A stretch of DNA of 64,000 nt from positions 1,670 to 65,669 of IMG/VR virus record IMGVR_UViG_3300035670_000189; one strand, 5' to 3'. The stretch's first letter is position 1. Each line of letters opens with the position of its first letter. The notes beneath the pieces are model-generated. The model worked only from the letters and a program-made list of their open reading frames with translations. It searched no databases and was not told where the DNA came from. The position numbers were made by a program, and so were the translations under genes. Source of the stretch: a virus (Duplodnaviria > Caudoviricetes). This document shows positions 6,211-37,800 of this stretch, in pieces.

Positions 6211-7119
6211 ATGGCAATTTCTCGTGCCCAACTACTGAAAGAACTCTTGCCCGGTCTGAACGCCTTGTTTGGTCTGGAGTACAAGAAGTACGGTGAAGAA
6301 CACAAAGAGATTTTCGAGACCGAAACCTCTGAGCGTTCTTTTGAAGAAGAAACCAAGCTGTCTGGCTTCTCCGCCGCTCCGGTGAAGAACGAAGGCAGCG
6401 CAATGGCCTACGACAACGCCCAAGAAGCATGGACTGCACGTTACGTGCACGAGACCATCGCTATGGGTTTCTCGCTGACTGAAGAAGCCATCGAGGACAA
6501 CCTGTACGACTCTCTGTCCAGCCGCTACACCAAGGCATTGGCTCGCGCCATGGCTTACACCAAGCAGGTCAAAGCTGCTTCGATCCTGAACCAAGCCTTC
6601 TCCGGCGGCCCCACCTACGGTGACGGTCAGGTTCTGTGCTCGACCGCTCACCCCCTGATCTCTGGTGGCACCAACAGCAACCGCCCCACCGTCGCTGCCG
6701 ACCTGAACGAGACTTCTCTGGAAGCCGCCGTTATTCAGATCGCTGGTTGGACGGATGAACGCGGCCTGCTGATCGCTGCCAAGCCTCGCAAGCTGGTCGT
6801 TCCCCCAGCACTGCAATTCGTTGCTGAGCGTCTGTTGAAGACCGAACTGCGCGTTGCTACCGCTGACAACGACATCAACGCCATCAAGTCGATGGGTTCC
6901 ATCCCCGAAGGTTACACGGTCAACCACTACCTGACCGACACCAACGCTTGGTTCCTGATGACTGACGTGCCTAACGGCCTGAAGCACTTTGTCCGCACCC
7001 CCATGCAAACTGGCATGGATGCTGACTTTGACACCGGGAACTCCCGCTACAAGGCCCGTGAACGCTACTCCTTCGGGGTCAGCGATCCTCTGGGCATCTA
7101 CGGTAGCCCCGGCGCGTAA
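6211..7119 (+). CDS. Major capsid protein (HK97 fold)
   Basis: 302 aa, MAISRAQLLKELLPGLNALFGLEY...RYKARERYSFG..DP. Strong AAGGAG RBS and followed by a terminator. Confidence 0.9.
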   Translation: MAISRAQLLKELLPGLNALFGLEYKKYGEEHKEIFETETSERSFEEETKLSGFSAAPVKNEGSAMAYDNAQEAWTARYVHETIAMGFSLTEEAIEDNLYDSLSSRYTKALARAMAYTKQVKAASILNQAFSGGPTYGDGQVLCSTAHPLISGGTNSNRPTVAADLNETSLEAAVIQIAGWTDERGLLIAAKPRKLVVPPALQFVAERLLKTELRVATADNDINAIKSMGSIPEGYTVNHYLTDTNAWFLMTDVPNGLKHFVRTPMQTGMDADFDTGNSRYKARERYSFGVSDPLGIYGSPGA

Positions 7120-7147
7120 CACAAAACCGCAAGGTTTGACACAAAAG

Positions 7148-7176
7148 AACGGCCCTTCGGGGCCGTTTTTCTTTTT
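7148..7176 (+). terminator. Rho-independent terminator after major capsid gene
   Basis: AACGGCCC-TTCG-GGGCCGTT followed by TTTCTTTTT. Confidence 0.9.
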
Positions 7177-7223
7177 CCGTTGTCCTGTGGTACATTACCC
7201 GTGTCAAACCACAGGAGTTACAG

Positions 7224-7850
7224 ATGGACGTTTCAAACCTCCCCAAAACCCGTGCTGAAGCCAAAGCTACCGGGGCCAAGTATTACTTCACGGGAGAGCC
7301 GTGCAAGCATGGGCACGTTGCACCCCGCAAAACAAAAGGGGCGTGTGTTGATTGCCTCAAAGAAGAATGGCGTAAAGGGGCAGAAACCCGGGCCGAGTAC
7401 TTTCGCACATACAACCAATCAGCCGCAGGTAAGGCGGCAAAAGAGCGGTACTACGAGGCCAACAAAGCAGACGTGATTGCGAAGGCTAGAGCCACACCAA
7501 ACGAACTGAAGAACGCATATAGGAAGGCGTGGGCGGATAACAATCTGCTGTCCATACGGGCGAATACAAAAGCTCGACGCCGTAAGCATCGACAAGCTAC
7601 CCCGCCATGGTTGACAAGAGCCCAGAAGTCCGAGATTCGTGCGCTGTACCAAGCTGCTATCTTGTCCTCCCAGACCACTGGGGAGCGTTACGTCGTAGAC
7701 CACATCTACCCGCTCCGATCCGAGGTCGTGTGTGGACTGCATGTTCCATGGAACTTACGGATTACCACTCAGGAGGAGAACCTGAAAAAATCAAACAATT
7801 TGCCAGACGACTCAATGGCGCTTGCGTTTCCGCCACGCACAGTGACATAA
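7224..7850 (+). CDS. Free-standing HNH homing endonuclease (1)
   Basis: N-terminal YFTGEPCKHGH..C..C; C-terminal VDHIYPL...VCGLHVPWNL...EN..KSN. Confidence 0.88.
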   Translation: MDVSNLPKTRAEAKATGAKYYFTGEPCKHGHVAPRKTKGACVDCLKEEWRKGAETRAEYFRTYNQSAAGKAAKERYYEANKADVIAKARATPNELKNAYRKAWADNNLLSIRANTKARRRKHRQATPPWLTRAQKSEIRALYQAAILSSQTTGERYVVDHIYPLRSEVVCGLHVPWNLRITTQEENLKKSNNLPDDSMALAFPPRTVT

Positions 7851-7851
7851 T
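7822..7851 (+). promoter_or_regulatory. Putative sigma70-type promoter
   Basis: TTGCGT-N18-CATAAT with an extended -10 TG at 7843-7844, sited just ahead of the structured leader. Confidence 0.5.
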
Positions 7852-7859
7852 GCTACAAA

Positions 7860-7931
7860 CCGGGGTCATCCGGTGTTCTGACAGTCCCGGCTGGCGTCAT
7901 GCAGACAGAACACCATAACTCGCATGAGAGG
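7860..7931 (+). ncRNA. Putative structured cis-regulatory RNA (double-pseudoknot leader)
   Basis: Interleaved complementary segments: 7860-7865/7885-7890, 7872-7880/7906-7914, 7882-7884/7891-7893 and 7897-7902/7922-7927. The last overlaps the RBS. Confidence 0.65.
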
Positions 7932-7939
7932 AAACTCAA

Positions 7940-8248
7940 ATGGCTAATACCACCTTCAACGGGCCAGTTCGATCGGAGAACGGCTTTCAGTCCATCACCA
8001 AAAACGCCACCACTGGTGCAGTCACTGTCGATGCCACCTTTGGCACCGCGACCAGCGTAGACAGCGTTACCGTCGCTGACTTCTTGGCCCTGACCCCCAT
8101 CACAACCGCAGAACTGCCCGCCGCTGCCGCTGGCAACGAAGGTCAAGTCCGCTTGATCAACGACAACGGCGCTGGCGATGATGAGTACTGCTTGGTGATC
8201 AGCACCGGCTCTGCTTGGGTTACTGCTGTTGGCGCTGCTCTGAGCTAA
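7940..8248 (+). CDS. Putative virion structural protein
   Basis: 102 aa starting MANTTFNGPVRSENGF, A/T-rich composition, GAGAGG RBS. Confidence 0.75.
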   Translation: MANTTFNGPVRSENGFQSITKNATTGAVTVDATFGTATSVDSVTVADFLALTPITTAELPAAAAGNEGQVRLINDNGAGDDEYCLVISTGSAWVTAVGAALS

Positions 8249-8260
8249 TAGGAGCACGCT

Positions 8261-8533
8261 ATGTCAACTGACATTTCAGCGGCGCAAGTAGACGAGACAG
8301 GCACAGCTTATGGCGCACGCACCCGCGTGCGTGGTTTGCTGGTCATGCCCACGGCGTCTGCTGGCTCCGTAGCTCTCAAGGACGGCGGCTCAAGCGGCAC
8401 AAGCATGATGACCATCACAACGGCAGCGAACGGTGAACCCTTCAGCGTCGTGATCCCCGCAGATGGCATCTTGTTTGAGACCGACGTGTACGCCACGGTG
8501 TCGAACGCAACTGCTCTGGTGTTCTATGGCTAA
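8261..8533 (+). CDS. Putative virion structural protein
   Basis: 90 aa with AGGAG RBS; beta-rich composition. Confidence 0.75.
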   Translation: MSTDISAAQVDETGTAYGARTRVRGLLVMPTASAGSVALKDGGSSGTSMMTITTAANGEPFSVVIPADGILFETDVYATVSNATALVFYG

Positions 8534-8796: not shown

Positions 8797-9045
8797 ATGG
8801 AACTGATGCTCTGGAACGTGGCCCTGTCGTTCATCTCCGCATTGATCCTCATGTGGATCAAGTCAACGGTGGACGAACTCAAGCGAGTGCAAATCCTGTT
8901 GAACCGTACCCGGGAAGAAATCGCCAAGGAGTACATCACCAAGACGGACGTGCACAGCGATATCAACCGCGTGCTTCAACGACTCGACCGATTGGATGAG
9001 AAGTTGGACGCGTACATGAAGGAGCAACGCAGTGCCATCAACTAG
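8797..9045 (+). CDS. Hypothetical membrane-anchored coiled-coil protein
   Basis: Hydrophobic N-terminal 21 aa followed by a coiled coil. Confidence 0.7.
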   Translation: MELMLWNVALSFISALILMWIKSTVDELKRVQILLNRTREEIAKEYITKTDVHSDINRVLQRLDRLDEKLDAYMKEQRSAIN

Positions 9046-9364
9046 CAAGAAGCAACATAATTTCATGGCAGCGGTGGCCAACAATCCGTCGTTTGCCAAG
9101 AAAGCAGGGGTTCCACAGTCCGTGGGGCAAGAGTTCACAAAGGCCGACAAGGGCCGTAAATTTGCGAAAGGTGGTAGCACTATGGCAACCAAAGACATGA
9201 AGAAGGCTCTGGCAGCGCATGCTGCCAAACCCGCATCCAAAGCCCACGCAGGTCTGAAGACCGGCGGTGCGGTGTTCCGCAAGTCCGCTGACGGTATTGC
9301 CAAAAAAGGCAAGACCAAAGGCACCGAGATCGTCATGAAGGCAAAAGGTGGGATGTGCAAATGA
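9032..9364 (+). CDS. Small basic protein with AxGG motifs
   Basis: K-rich; contains FAKGG, LKTGG, ADGIAKKGKT. Confidence 0.7.
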   Translation: MPSTSKKQHNFMAAVANNPSFAKKAGVPQSVGQEFTKADKGRKFAKGGSTMATKDMKKALAAHAAKPASKAHAGLKTGGAVFRKSADGIAKKGKTKGTEIVMKAKGGMCK

Positions 9365-9621
9365 AAAAGAAATACGCTGATGGCGGTATCTACACCGCCG
9401 ACATGGGTCAACCCCCTCAAGACATCGACGGCGCGTCTGCCGCCCCCAAGCGCCCCATGCCTGCCGAAGGCCGCATGATGGAGCGCGAAGGTCGTGGCAT
9501 GGCCAAGGCTGACATGCAGAAGAAGATGATGGCTCCCAAAGGCTATGCCAAGGGTGGCTCTGTCTCTGCACGCGCTGACGGTATCGCCAAGCGTGGCAAG
9601 ACTCACTGCAAGATGGTGTGA
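9361..9621 (+). CDS. Small basic protein with AxGG motifs
   Basis: ATGA overlap with upstream gene; contains YADGG, YAKGG, RADGIAKRGKT. Confidence 0.7.
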   Translation: MKKKYADGGIYTADMGQPPQDIDGASAAPKRPMPAEGRMMEREGRGMAKADMQKKMMAPKGYAKGGSVSARADGIAKRGKTHCKMV

Positions 9622-9956
9622 CCATGATGGCCAGCCGAGGCATGGGTGCAATCCGCAAGGACAAGATTCCGGGCGGCAAAACCATGCGCCGCAAAGACGG
9701 TGACAAGTTTAACGACAACGGTGTCGAAAAGCGCCGTAAGGACGGGGACGAGTTCACTCTCTTTGCGGAAGGCGGTAACGTAAAGTCCAAGGTCAACGCC
9801 GCTGGAAACTACACCAAGCCGGGTATGCGCAAGTCGCTTTTTGAGAAAATCAAGGGGCAGGCCGTGCAGGGCACTGGGGCAGGGCAATGGAGCGCCCGTA
9901 AGGCGCAGTTGTTGGCCAAGGAATACAAACGCAAAGGCGGGGGGTACAGAGATTGA
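9618..9956 (+). CDS. Small basic protein
   Basis: GTGA overlap; contains FAEGG, NYTKPGMRK and GQWSARKAQLLA..Y...GGGY. Confidence 0.7.
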   Translation: MTMMASRGMGAIRKDKIPGGKTMRRKDGDKFNDNGVEKRRKDGDEFTLFAEGGNVKSKVNAAGNYTKPGMRKSLFEKIKGQAVQGTGAGQWSARKAQLLAKEYKRKGGGYRD

Positions 9957-10186
9957 AGGCACCGCAAAAATCGCTCAAGGACTGGACTGACCAAAAATGG
10001 CGTACCAAGTCTGGCAAGCCGTCGAACAAGACGGGGGAGCGGTATTTGCCCGAAGCAGCAATCAAGTCTCTGACTCCGGCTGAGTATGCAGCCACAACTC
10101 GTGCAAAACGTGCGGGTAAGGCCAAGGGCAAACAGTTTGTTGCCCAGCCAAAGGCTATCGCCAAGAAAACAGCGGGGTTTCGGTAA
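9953..10186 (+). CDS. Small basic protein
   Basis: 77 aa, very K/R-rich, coupled to its neighbours. Confidence 0.7.
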   Translation: MKAPQKSLKDWTDQKWRTKSGKPSNKTGERYLPEAAIKSLTPAEYAATTRAKRAGKAKGKQFVAQPKAIAKKTAGFR

Positions 10187-34800: not shown

Positions 34801-37800
34801 GGACGTGTGGTCACTCTTGCACGAGGCCACCCACGGTGCAGTCAACCAGACCCTGAACAACACCAACAGCCCCCTGACCAAACAACTCACGCAGTTGTTC
34901 AACGACGTGAAGGACTCGCTCGATACCGCCTACGGTGCCAGCGATGTCAAGGAGTTCGCCGCCGAAGCCTTCAGCAATCCAGCCTTCCAACAGAAGCTGG
35001 CCGCGATCAACCCCAAGGGGGAGAAGATCACTGCATGGCAACGCTTTGTGCACGCGGTCAAGAACTACCTGCGCAACATGATCGGCCTGCCGACCAAGGG
35101 TATGGGCACCGCGCTGGATTCTGCCGACCACATGATCGAGGCTATCGTCAACGGTCACCCCGGCACCAGCAACTCCCTGCAAACTGTGTCCCTGCTCAAC
35201 AAGGGCGCAGAGTTCTTCACCGCCATGGGCAAACGTGCTGAGTCACTGCCCGGCCTGAACGCCGAGCGTGTTGGTCGCATCCATGAGATGTTCAGCGGCA
35301 CCCTGCCGAATACCGTGAAGAACGTGATTCGCCAAGCCCTGCCCCTGAACGCCCTCGTCGAGGTGGCGCAGAAGTACATCCCCATGGCCCCCAAGCTGGA
35401 CGTGATGGTGGGTGAGCGTGCTGGCGCAGAGAACCGCCGCAACCAAGCGATTGAGCCGGTCATTGACCGCGTGAACGCATGGGCTAAGGCCAACCCCGCG
35501 CTGGTGGACAAGCTCAACAACGTCATCTACCGCAGCACGCTCGACCAAGTTGACCCCGGCAAGCCTCGTGCAGAGTACGCAGGCAAGATGGACGACAGCG
35601 GCAACCGCAAGGACGAGGCATGGGATGCCATGCAAGCTGACTGGAAAGCCCTCGGTGCATCCGGCCAGACGACCTACAAGCTGATGCGCGATACGTACAA
35701 GAAGATGTACGACGATGTTCGCCGTGTGCTGGACACCCGCATTGACGACGCACTGGAGGATGCCGACACCCGCAAGAAGGTGAAGGCTGAAATCTACCAG
35801 CGTCTGTTTGCATCCGGCCACATCGAGCCGTACTTCCCCCTGACCCGTAGCGGTAAGTACTGGCTGTCCTACACGTTGGGCAACGAGTTCTTCGTTGAAG
35901 CGTTTGAGACCAACTACCAGCGTGACCAAGCTGTAAAAGAACTTAGGACAGAAGGTGCTACCGACGTGCAGCGGTTCGCCAATCTGAATCAGGTCAACTA
36001 CCGCAAGGCACCGGCCACATCCTTCGTGAACAACGTGCTGCGCACGCTCGAAGCCAACAAGGTCAACGCCAACGTGACTGAAGAAGTTATGCGGTTGTTC
36101 CTCAACACCCTGCCCGAGACATCGTTCGCACAGTCGTTCCGCAAGCGTAAAGGCACGCTGGGTTTCCAACGTGACGCTGTGGGCGCACTGCGCATGAAGG
36201 CGTTTAACCTGTCTCGCCAACTCTCCAACATGGAGTACGGTGCCAAGCTGGAAAAGCTACGCGCCGACATGAAAGAGTACGTGCGCAGCCAAGGCAACCC
36301 GGATGAGGCAGTGGAGATGATGAACGAGCTTGACGCTCGTATCGACTACGCCATCAGCCCACAGGTTCCCCAGTGGTCAAAGCTGGCCACGTCGTTCGGC
36401 TTCAACATGACACTGGGTTTCAACGTGTCCTCCGCACTGGTGAACTTGTCCCAGATTCCGCTGGTCGTGATGCCTTACCTTGGTGGTAAGTACGGCTACT
36501 CTGAGACGAGCAAGGCACTCGGTCGCGCCTCCCGCTACTTCGCTGGCTCGGGATTCAAGCGTGAAGTTGAGATGCTGGTGCCCACCGATAAGGGCGAGAA
36601 GACGATGAAGGTGCGTGCCTTCCCGTCGCTGGACAACTACGACTTCGATGCCAAGGATGCACCAAAACATCTGAAGGTGTTGTCTGAAGTTGCTGGCGCT
36701 CGCGGGCAGCTTAACCGCTCACAGGTGTACGACATTCTGGACGTGGATGAGAGCCAGAGCGTGATGACCAAGATCAACGCAGCTTCCGGTTTCGTGTTCC
36801 ACCACGGTGAACGCATGAACCGCCAAGTCGCCATGATCGCCGCGTACGAGTTGGAGCTTCAGCGACTGGTGGGTGCAGGTAAAGACCTTACCAGTGCATC
36901 CGAGAAACAGATGCGCCAAGCCGCCGACTACGCTGTGTACGTGACCGAATTGACCAACGGTGGCACCGCTGCCGCCGCTGCGCCGCGTCTTGCGCAAAGC
37001 GCGATCGGCAAGGTTGTGTTCATGTACAAACGCTATGGCGCGTCGATGTACTACATGCTGTTCAAGACGGCACGTGAGGCGCTGAAGTCTGCTGATCCAG
37101 AAGTTCGCAAAGCCGCCAAGCGCCAGATCGCTGGTATCTACGCATCGTCCGCACTGATGGCTGGCGTGCAGGGTATCCCGATGTTCGGTATGGCCGCGAT
37201 GATCTACAACCTGATCTTCAAAGACGATGACGACGATGACTTCGACACCGCCGCACGCAAGTATCTGGGTGAAGGCATTTATAGCGGTGCACTCAACGCA
37301 CTGACTGGGCTCGAAATCTCTGGCCGTATCGGTCTGTCCGACCTGCTGTTCCGTGACACCAACACCCGCCCAAGCGACAGCGTGATGCTCAGCTTGATGG
37401 AAGTTGCTGGTGGCCCAGTGATCGGTGTGGCAAGCCGAGTCGAGCGTGGACTGAAGCTGATTGGTGAAGGTCACATCGAGCGTGGTGTGGAGCAGATTCT
37501 GCCCAGCGCCATTGGCAACGGACTCAAGGCGGTGCGGTTTGCAACGGAGGGTGCCAACACCCTGCGCGGTGACCCGATCGCCGGAGAGATCGGCCCGTGG
37601 AACTCCTTTGCTCAGTTCTTCGGGTTCGCACCCGCCGAGTACACCCGCCAGCTTGAGATCAACTCTGCGCTCAAGAACATCGAGCGCACCGCGCTGGAAG
37701 ATCGCACCAAGTTGTTGCGTAACTACTATGTGGCCATGCGCATGGGCGACACACAGGAAGCGGCAAACATTGCCGCCGAGATGCTGAAGTACAACCGCAA

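Follow-up and report, generated by a model that had tools for sequence, protein, structure and literature searches.

The closest described relative of the RNA element reported here is Mu-gpT-DE (RF03012), which Rfam files under the type "Gene; sRNA" (sRNA, small RNA) with a gathering score of 49 bits, and whose name we take to mean downstream of the Mu gpT-like major head gene. No function of Mu-gpT-DE was found in the literature searched: the CaCoFold paper holds only a list entry, the main text of Weinberg 2017 does not mention the family, which its supplement may describe, and nothing on such a leader was among the titles found in broader searches. The element in question lies in a 64,000-nucleotide (nt) window, positions 1,670-65,669 of the IMG/VR record IMGVR_UViG_3300035670_000189 and nearly the whole of this complete 65.7-kb virus record; all positions below are those of the window. 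We consider it likely that 7860-7930 forms the untranslated 5′ leader on the mRNA of a gene that starts at 7940 and encodes a protein of 102 amino acids (aa), and that this leader folds into a compact RNA of five helices. Judged by its homologues, this leader is an evolutionarily conserved double-pseudoknot RNA predicted to fold around the ribosome-binding site of a head-associated gene. On our best reading, it is a larger, undescribed, double-pseudoknotted relative or variant of Mu-gpT-DE.

The Rfam consensus of RF03012 reads C-CCUG-A-CAGcc..ggCUG-ACAcUAGCCAcGA-CAGG-AGAUuaACAUG. It shares with the window type an outer helix (P2) ending in CUG, a bulged A, a CAG...CUG inner hairpin and a junction strand (J) that starts with AC and ends with GA, followed by CAG. 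The window carries this core as UCUG-A-CAG..CUG-GC..GA-CAG, and its own first J nucleotide (J1) is G, not the consensus A. The place is shared as well, after a Mu gpT-like capsid gene and directly before a gene of the M..TTF.GP family; in the window, the element follows a capsid gene matching PF10124, with an HNH open reading frame (ORF) inserted between the two. In both forms, a promoter-like −10 is located just upstream, and J pairs with the translation initiation region. The two forms differ in size and wiring. Mu-gpT-DE spans 53 nt and has an outer helix of 4 base pairs (bp), whose 3′ strand CAGG overlaps the Shine-Dalgarno sequence, whereas the window element spans about 70 nt, and the outer helix of its type has 9-10 bp and no such overlap; in the window itself, 13 nt lie between the end of the 9-bp helix and the Shine-Dalgarno sequence. 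The inner hairpin of the window type is cut to 3 bp, its loop pairs with the 5′ tail (PK1), and the partner of J is the loop of an added hairpin, P3 (PK2), while in Mu-gpT-DE it is the start-codon region.

The evidence for the window type comes from its relatives. Viral contigs scanned with the 102-aa protein gave at least 587 relatives, and 80 loci were kept. Upstream of the protein relatives there is one shared architecture, with helix sequences that differ. From the relatives, 45 distinct leaders were aligned and a covariance model, R1, was built; RNAalifold, applied to the leader alignment, retrieved both P2 and the inner hairpin, and compensatory changes were seen in 11 of 13 pairs. The match of R1 at 7852-7942 (72.1 bits) is the only credible copy in the window. 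A weak match at 35634-35717 (12.9 bits, E 0.47), which shares GACGAC and a P2-like helix, is probably due to chance. Altogether, R1 matched 55 of 83 sources: the window, phage DSL-LC04 (43.3 bits) and 53 of the 80 kept loci. A DNA-only scan with an 18-mer of the core, which is independent of the protein, found at least 120 viral contigs, and all 80 loci returned by it have a full-length R1 match ending at ATG. The same 18-mer had 10 matches in a scan of genome contigs; five were borne out by R1, all on contigs of metagenome-assembled genomes, and two isolate genomes with 18-mer matches showed no R1 match, so that their 18-mer matches were taken as chance. When a typical leader (blastn) and the 102-aa protein (tblastn) were compared with the phage collection, no match was obtained, and the cultured carriers HTVC023P and CRP-901 were identified via the capsid gene. 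The capsid region resembles that of Synechococcus phage MinM2, Planktothrix phage Pag-Yong1, DSL-LC04, HTVC023P and the Roseobacter phages CRP-901/902. In Pelagibacter phage HTVC023P, R1 matches directly before gp41 (42.2 bits, E 6.5e-10), and the helices, read from the sequence, are new compensated versions: CCUAG/CUAGG for PK1, UUUUGUAG/CUACAAAA for P2 and GUAUAG/CUAUAC for PK2.

A first-pass annotation made from the window sequence alone had listed P2, the inner hairpin, PK1 and PK2 as an interleaved double pseudoknot. All of these helices are present in the sequence, exactly where the annotation had placed them, and compensatory changes keep them in related phages. Covariation was assessed on a diverse alignment of 47 distinct homologous leaders, with shuffles and the sliding of 3′ partners as controls. 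For P2, the inner hairpin and PK2, 94.1% of the cells were paired compared to 68.6% in the shuffles, both sides had changed in 17 of 19 pairs, and the covariation score was 0.689 versus 0.220 when shuffled, a value reached by none of 500 shuffles and approached by no slid partner (at most 0.168). In P2, all nine pairs have changed on both sides among the relatives, with 95.9% of the cells paired. Counting all helices, one fixed-column alignment was 86.6% paired with a score of 0.528 (0.208 shuffled), and another was 95.6% paired with a score of 0.226 (0.105 shuffled); in neither case did any of 500 shuffles reach the score.

The two pseudoknots share one design, a 3-bp hairpin with a 6-nt loop that is fully paired to a single strand, and fully paired 6-nt loops are known from kissing complexes. 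PK2 is complementary at six of six positions in 42 of the 47 leaders and at five of six in the remaining five (P = 0.027 for six of six with shuffled tails). Ten different hexamers occur: ACAUGC, ACAUAC, ACAUGU, UCAUGC, AUGCAC, UUGCAC, AUGCAG, ACUUGC, ACAAGC and UAGUAG. The swap test on PK2 was weaker, with 44 of 423 combinations reaching six of six, because the hexamers are alike and wobble pairs were allowed. PK1 consists of five G-C pairs and one G·U pair in the window. At least five contiguous PK1 pairs were found in 41 of the 47 leaders (P = 0.139 with shuffled tails) and in 107 of the 114 unique leaders of both sets. About ten types of pairing were seen, among them CCGGG/CCCGG, CCCGGA/UCCGGG, UCGGG/CCCGA, CUGGG/CCCAG, CUAGG/CCUAG, AAGGGC/GCCCUU and CAGGGC/GCCCUG.

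The fifth helix, P3, was absent from the first-pass annotation and is formed by the 3 nt on either side of the PK2 3′ strand, which pair mutually, so that PK2 would be the docking of J into the 6-nt loop of P3. At least three contiguous flanking pairs were found in 103 of 112 unique tails, in which the loop-closing pair was C-G in 57, U-A in 38, U·G in 11 and G-C in 3 cases; in the fixed columns of the two alignments, 92.0% and 97.3% of the P3 cells were paired. The PK2 3′ strand runs directly into the GAGG of the Shine-Dalgarno sequence, in agreement with the original claim that this pseudoknot reaches the ribosome-binding site. A conserved stand-alone hairpin that sequesters the start codon was rejected, as the tail from P2 to +15 folds only weakly and inconsistently (−1.4 to −8.5 kcal/mol). 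The junction shows another pattern of conservation. The outer C-G and G-C pairs of the inner hairpin are invariant (47/47 each), and its middle pair is A-U in 32, G-C in 7, U-A in 5 and C-G in 3 leaders. J2 C, J11 G and J12 A are likewise invariant (47/47 each), and J1 is A in 46 of 47 leaders, the window having G. The central hexamer of J is variable, with compensation, and the pairs next to the junction covary freely. Invariant junction bases together with helix pairs that never covary suggest specific recognition.

Not every relative carries the window type. The 27 kept loci without an R1 match fall into type 2 (16 loci), type 3 (nine loci) and a fourth type (two loci, L012 and L040). Two type-2 loci were scanned against Rfam: L036 reached 75.4 bits on RF03012, and L007 reached 41.1 bits (E 4.1e-06), below the 49-bit gathering score. 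The leader of gp56 in roseophage CRP-901 scored 72.3 bits on the same model. Conversely, R1 matches no Mu-gpT-DE locus, and RF03012 has no match in 7000-8400 or 7845-7950 of the window at E values up to 10. As R1 and RF03012 do not hit each other's leaders, the element is not a member of the family by model and was therefore filed as a variant. The first-pass annotation could not assign the element to a named RNA family. This still holds insofar as the only Rfam hits to the leader at E up to 10 were those to mir-3017 (15.8 bits) and v-snoRNA-1 (11.7 bits), both on the opposite strand and no better than chance, and the window as a whole had no hit at the gathering score, but a named relative, RF03012, has now emerged in the sister leaders.

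The outer-helix CAGG of the Mu-gpT-DE consensus continues into the GGAG before AUG, and we read this GGAG as the Shine-Dalgarno sequence. The AGCCA within J is complementary to AUGGCU at the start codon (L036, 1951-2003; L335, 2280-2332). An unbiased pattern scan returned 80 Mu-gpT-DE loci with 67 unique leaders, one of them without a start found. Across the 67 unique leaders, the base in J and the central one of codon 2 were G/C in 57 and C/G in 10, with none discordant, and when the scan was restricted to non-G at the J base, 76 of 80 loci had ACCCA with AUGGGU. This change in J coincides with a change of residue 2 from Ala to Gly. Thus, Mu-gpT-DE appears to have an unannotated pseudoknot between J and the start codon. 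The type-3 leader (..UUGACCUCGGACACGAGAGGAG..) stands before the same gene family (L042, L044, L047, L051, L061, L063, L066, L068 and L070), is matched by neither R1 nor RF03012 and has an extra upstream hairpin. By eye, its CCUC appears to pair with the GAGG of the Shine-Dalgarno sequence.

The coordinates of the element and its surroundings are compiled in Table 1.

Table 1. Features of the leader element and of the neighbouring genes in the window.
Feature	Position	Strand	Remarks
Major capsid protein gene, Mu gpT-like/HK97-type	6211-7119	+	Pfam and PHROG matches
Intrinsic terminator after the capsid gene	7145-7170	+	Strong; 11-bp stem with 6 G-C pairs; T run
HNH/endonuclease VII-like ORF	7224-7850	+	PHROG 1035 endonuclease VII, E 9.1e-18; PHROG 26577, E 7.9e-25
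Promoter-like site	7822-7851	+	−35 TTGCGT 7822-7827; 18-nt spacer; TG 7843-7844; −10 CATAAT 7846-7851; 8/12
Intergenic leader	7851-7939	+	89 nt, between the HNH ORF and the 102-aa gene
PK1 5′ strand CCGGGG	7860-7865	+	Partner is the hairpin loop TCCCGG 7885-7890
X′ box CCGG	7870-7873	+	Possible alternative partner of 7860-7863
P2 5′ strand GGTGTTCTG (= GGUGUUCUG)	7872-7880	+	Pairs with 7906-7914
Bulged A between P2 and inner hairpin	7881	+	A in 46/47 distinct leaders
Inner hairpin CAG 7882-7884/CUG 7891-7893	7882-7893	+	Closes the 6-nt loop UCCCGG 7885-7890, the PK1 3′ strand
Junction strand J GCGUCAUGCAGA	7894-7905	+	PK2 5′ strand TCATGC is 7897-7902
P2 3′ strand CAGAACACC	7906-7914	+	9-bp helix with 7872-7880
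P3 hairpin CUC 7919-7921/GAG 7928-7930	7919-7930	+	Loop GCAUGA 7922-7927 is the PK2 3′ strand
Shine-Dalgarno sequence GAGG	7928-7931	+	First three bases are the P3 3′ strand; 8 nt to the ATG at 7940
102-aa gene (MANTTFNGPVRSENGF..., MANTTFNGPVRS...)	7940-8248	+	ORF list; relatives annotated as cement or minor capsid protein

The capsid gene was identified by matches to the Pfam families PF25209 (Phage_capsid_4, E 1.7e-14) and PF10124 (Mu-like_gpT, E 6.7e-09) and to PHROG 371 (major head protein); its product had no sequence match in the PDB. In 126 of 135 loci, a homologue of this major capsid protein is encoded upstream of the element. The 200 nt before the element contain a terminator-like hairpin with a T run in 91 of 115 unique relatives, compared to 26 of 400 control windows. 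The other terminator-like sites in the scan were on the minus strand (7148-7167 and 7574-7592). None was detected in 7850-7942 and hence none between the element and the ATG, and the element lacks the hallmark of a terminator or attenuator. The transcript is predicted to start at about 7857-7859. The first-pass annotation had placed a promoter upstream of it (Table 1), and 73 of 112 unique relatives have a promoter-like site of at least 8/12 at the matching distance, compared to 136 of 3000 control windows; in these 73, the −10 ends 18-29 nt before P2, mostly 20-23 nt.

The HNH ORF is an optional cassette. It occurs in 10 of 135 loci, the window among them, and in every one it is inserted between the terminator of the capsid gene and the promoter of the leader. 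In the window, the ORF ends with a stop codon (7848-7850) that falls within the −10 hexamer of the promoter-like site. The ORF is absent in Pag-Yong1 and DSL-LC04, where 100-130 nt separate the capsid gene from the next gene, which is annotated as minor capsid or cement protein. Loci that bear the HNH ORF have a separate leader in common (TACATTACCYGT...CAGGAG), which includes a −10-like TACATT/TACAAT. A hairpin in this HNH leader, CCUGUGGU/ACCACAGG at about 7183-7218, was rejected, as it is not conserved in the other HNH-bearing loci. Further downstream, at 9032-10186, the window holds four small ORFs with overlapping ends (110, 88, 112 and 77 aa), whose very basic products are rich in Lys, Gly and Ala with similar KGG/KKG-type stretches and may be internal virion or DNA-binding proteins.

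Of the 135 R1 hits, 131 end at an ATG that opens an M..TTF.GP-type ORF; the remaining four comprise three variants of this type and one hit truncated by the contig end. That all 135 hits stand before one gene family speaks for an action in cis. The proteins encoded downstream are 57-237 aa long and have only about 17 N-terminal residues (MA.TTFSGPV.S.NGF) in common. The C-terminal parts are unrelated or repeat-rich and of very different lengths; the impression is one of a constant anchor peptide that carries exchangeable outer domains. The earlier description of the 102-aa gene as a virion gene agrees with its position and with the annotation of its relatives, on which alone the decoration or cement identity is based; a confident fold or sequence match to back the label was not obtained. 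The protein had no sequence match in the PDB, and Foldseek against the PDB returned nothing at E ≤ 0.001 for its AlphaFold model (predicted local distance difference test 73.2, predicted template modelling score 0.41). In BFVD, one uncharacterised protein (3.9e-04) and weak rows of the fibre or tailspike type were returned, which were not used as evidence.

We regard the element as probably a cis-acting translational control device on the initiation region, with the conserved fold as the low-translation state. Of the earlier label "cis-regulatory", the first half follows from the fixed place before one gene family; the second half is our reading of the fold. This reading starts from structure, conservation, fixed place and the link to the initiation region, as they emerge from the compared leaders. 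P2 and the 3-bp inner hairpin would meet at the junction with its invariant nucleotides, and the 5′ end of the transcript would pair with the inner-hairpin loop. In the folded RNA, the ribosome-binding site would be held against the core via PK2 and P3; with PK2 undocked, the 3-bp P3 could not stand alone, and the site would be free. Since P3 would be unstable on its own, masking of the Shine-Dalgarno sequence would depend on docking, and this dependence is why we read the element as translational control in cis. Translational off-switches and protein-bound autoregulatory leaders work on this principle of docking-dependent masking. In both the short and the long form, the junction would present J to the initiation region, namely to the start codon in the former and to the hairpin loop bearing the Shine-Dalgarno sequence in the latter.

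An effector that recognises the invariant junction would stabilise the low-translation fold. Our tentative candidate is a phage protein, for example the capsid protein or the decoration protein that the gene itself encodes; that the tuning is constitutive and involves no effector seems rather doubtful, and a small molecule or metabolite seems unlikely. With reserve, we put forward the possibility that the junction common to both forms is a sensor pocket for a factor reporting the state of infection or of capsid assembly, and that this factor (free decoration or capsid protein, or a metabolite) locks the loop-docking pseudoknots on the ribosome-binding site, which would constitute a new class of effector-responsive translational switch.

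A metabolite-sensing riboswitch would use the invariant junction as its pocket, and the ligand would lock PK2 and P3 to turn translation off, or turn it on via an alternative 5′ hairpin. A conserved 5′ untranslated region (UTR) structure backed by covariation is common to riboswitches and is found here, as are a compact pseudoknotted fold, invariant unpaired bases beside freely covarying helices and a Shine-Dalgarno sequence drawn into the fold. A universal ligand would also fit the very different hosts, with HTVC023P infecting Pelagibacter and DSL-LC04 listed under Gammaproteobacteria. The alternative 5′ hairpin (7860-7863/7870-7873), which involves the X′ box, would compete with PK1 and the outer P2 pairs, and at least four of its pairs are possible in 105 of 114 unique leaders. 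However, these leaders are mostly of the CCGG clade, and the hairpin is absent in the CUAGG and GGGU clades; missing in several clades, it is therefore not required. Moreover, the leader matched no riboswitch family of Rfam at E up to 10, and the window matched none at gathering score. The conserved unpaired positions number only about seven, and the gene is structural, with no metabolic link and a context that suggests no ligand candidate. Taken together, we consider such a riboswitch improbable.

We give similarly little credit to an mRNA stabiliser without any regulation, in which PK1 would block decay that depends on the 5′ end or 5′-3′ exonucleases. The abundant structural protein could profit from a long-lived mRNA, PK1 uses the bases right after the predicted start, and the element stands at the start of a transcription unit, after a terminator. 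Its 5′ and 3′ tails, each pseudoknotted around the junction, would also recall exonuclease-resistant RNAs. Still, a simple 5′ hairpin would suffice for this task, and neither the contact of PK2 and P3 with the Shine-Dalgarno sequence nor that of J with the start codon in the sister form is needed for stability. The invariant junction bases point to specific recognition instead.

A self-cleaving ribozyme that processes read-through transcripts of the capsid gene is very improbable. Small ribozymes with double-pseudoknot folds and invariant junction bases occur, and read-through from the capsid gene would provide a removable 5′ extension, but no ribozyme model of Rfam (hammerhead, twister, twister-sister, pistol, hatchet and HDV-like among them) matched the leader at E up to 10, and the strand order of the helices differs from that of the HDV fold. 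The promoter-like site directly upstream would leave little to cleave, and the tie to the ribosome-binding site would go unexplained. An independent trans-acting small RNA, as the Rfam type label of RF03012 would have it, is hardly credible given an element that always stands directly before one gene family, with no terminator between it and the ATG and with both models, R1 and RF03012, running to the start codon.

Several observations weigh against translational control by a relative of Mu-gpT-DE. The homology with Mu-gpT-DE is based on position and the shared junction signature, and neither model hits the other type. The covariation at the start codon of Mu-gpT-DE may be a single evolutionary event. 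On its own, the leader of the window has a nested minimum free energy of −23.7 kcal/mol (z = −0.12), which 81 of 200 shuffles equal or surpass in stability; the single sequence is thermodynamically unremarkable, and therefore the case for more than chance rests on the relatives. PK1 was 63.8% paired in the fixed columns of the alignment with 86.6% overall pairing and 87.5% in the other, owing to its shifting register, and its support stems from a register-free search that takes the best match. In the swap test, own tails gave a mean of 5.58 bp compared to 4.30 bp from other loop types, which is a modest margin. Because of these fixed-column percentages and this margin, PK1 is the least rigorously supported helix. 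The stem of P3 has only 3 bp, two of which are nearly constant, and it masks no more than three bases of the Shine-Dalgarno sequence. The strand signal from wobbles is weak (G·U 23, A·C 14), and the strand was assigned by the gene, the Shine-Dalgarno sequence and the promoter-like site. The latter lies below the thresholds of the sigma-70 scan, and many relatives have a poor −35. The transcript start, the effect on translation and the effector are what we infer from these sequences.

If this interpretation applies, Mu-gpT-DE and its larger variant would both be 5′ leaders that make contact with the ribosome-binding site or the start codon in a single family of phage structural genes, and this contact with the initiation region gives a concrete mechanism that is open to test. 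The variant is common, with at least 120 viral contigs carrying the exact 18-mer core, and experiments are possible with cultured carriers, namely HTVC023P and, for the classic form, CRP-901. Should an effector exist, the stoichiometry of virion proteins would here be under RNA-based post-transcriptional control, which is rare among tailed phages. If the junction were indeed a sensor pocket, the switch would determine how much head decoration protein is made by abundant aquatic podophages, pelagiphage HTVC023P among them.

Two groups of well-known leaders allow a comparison. In the SAM-II/SAM-V and preQ1-II riboswitches, the Shine-Dalgarno sequence is held in a pseudoknot. Like the window leader, these are small pseudoknotted 5′ UTRs in which a 3′ segment docks at or near the Shine-Dalgarno sequence as the off state. 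They are, however, controlled by a ligand, whereas the window leader has no sequence or model match to them and precedes a structural rather than a metabolic gene. The second group comprises the T4 gene 32 leader, the S4 site of the E. coli alpha operon and the S15 site of rpsO, which are protein-bound autoregulatory leader pseudoknots. There is no sequence similarity, and the proteins downstream of the window type share only the 17-residue N-terminus. Nevertheless, in each of these systems a leader pseudoknot, nested or double in the case of S4, lies near the initiation region of a gene that encodes an abundant structural or nucleic-acid-binding protein, and this likeness would fit a feedback by the encoded protein.

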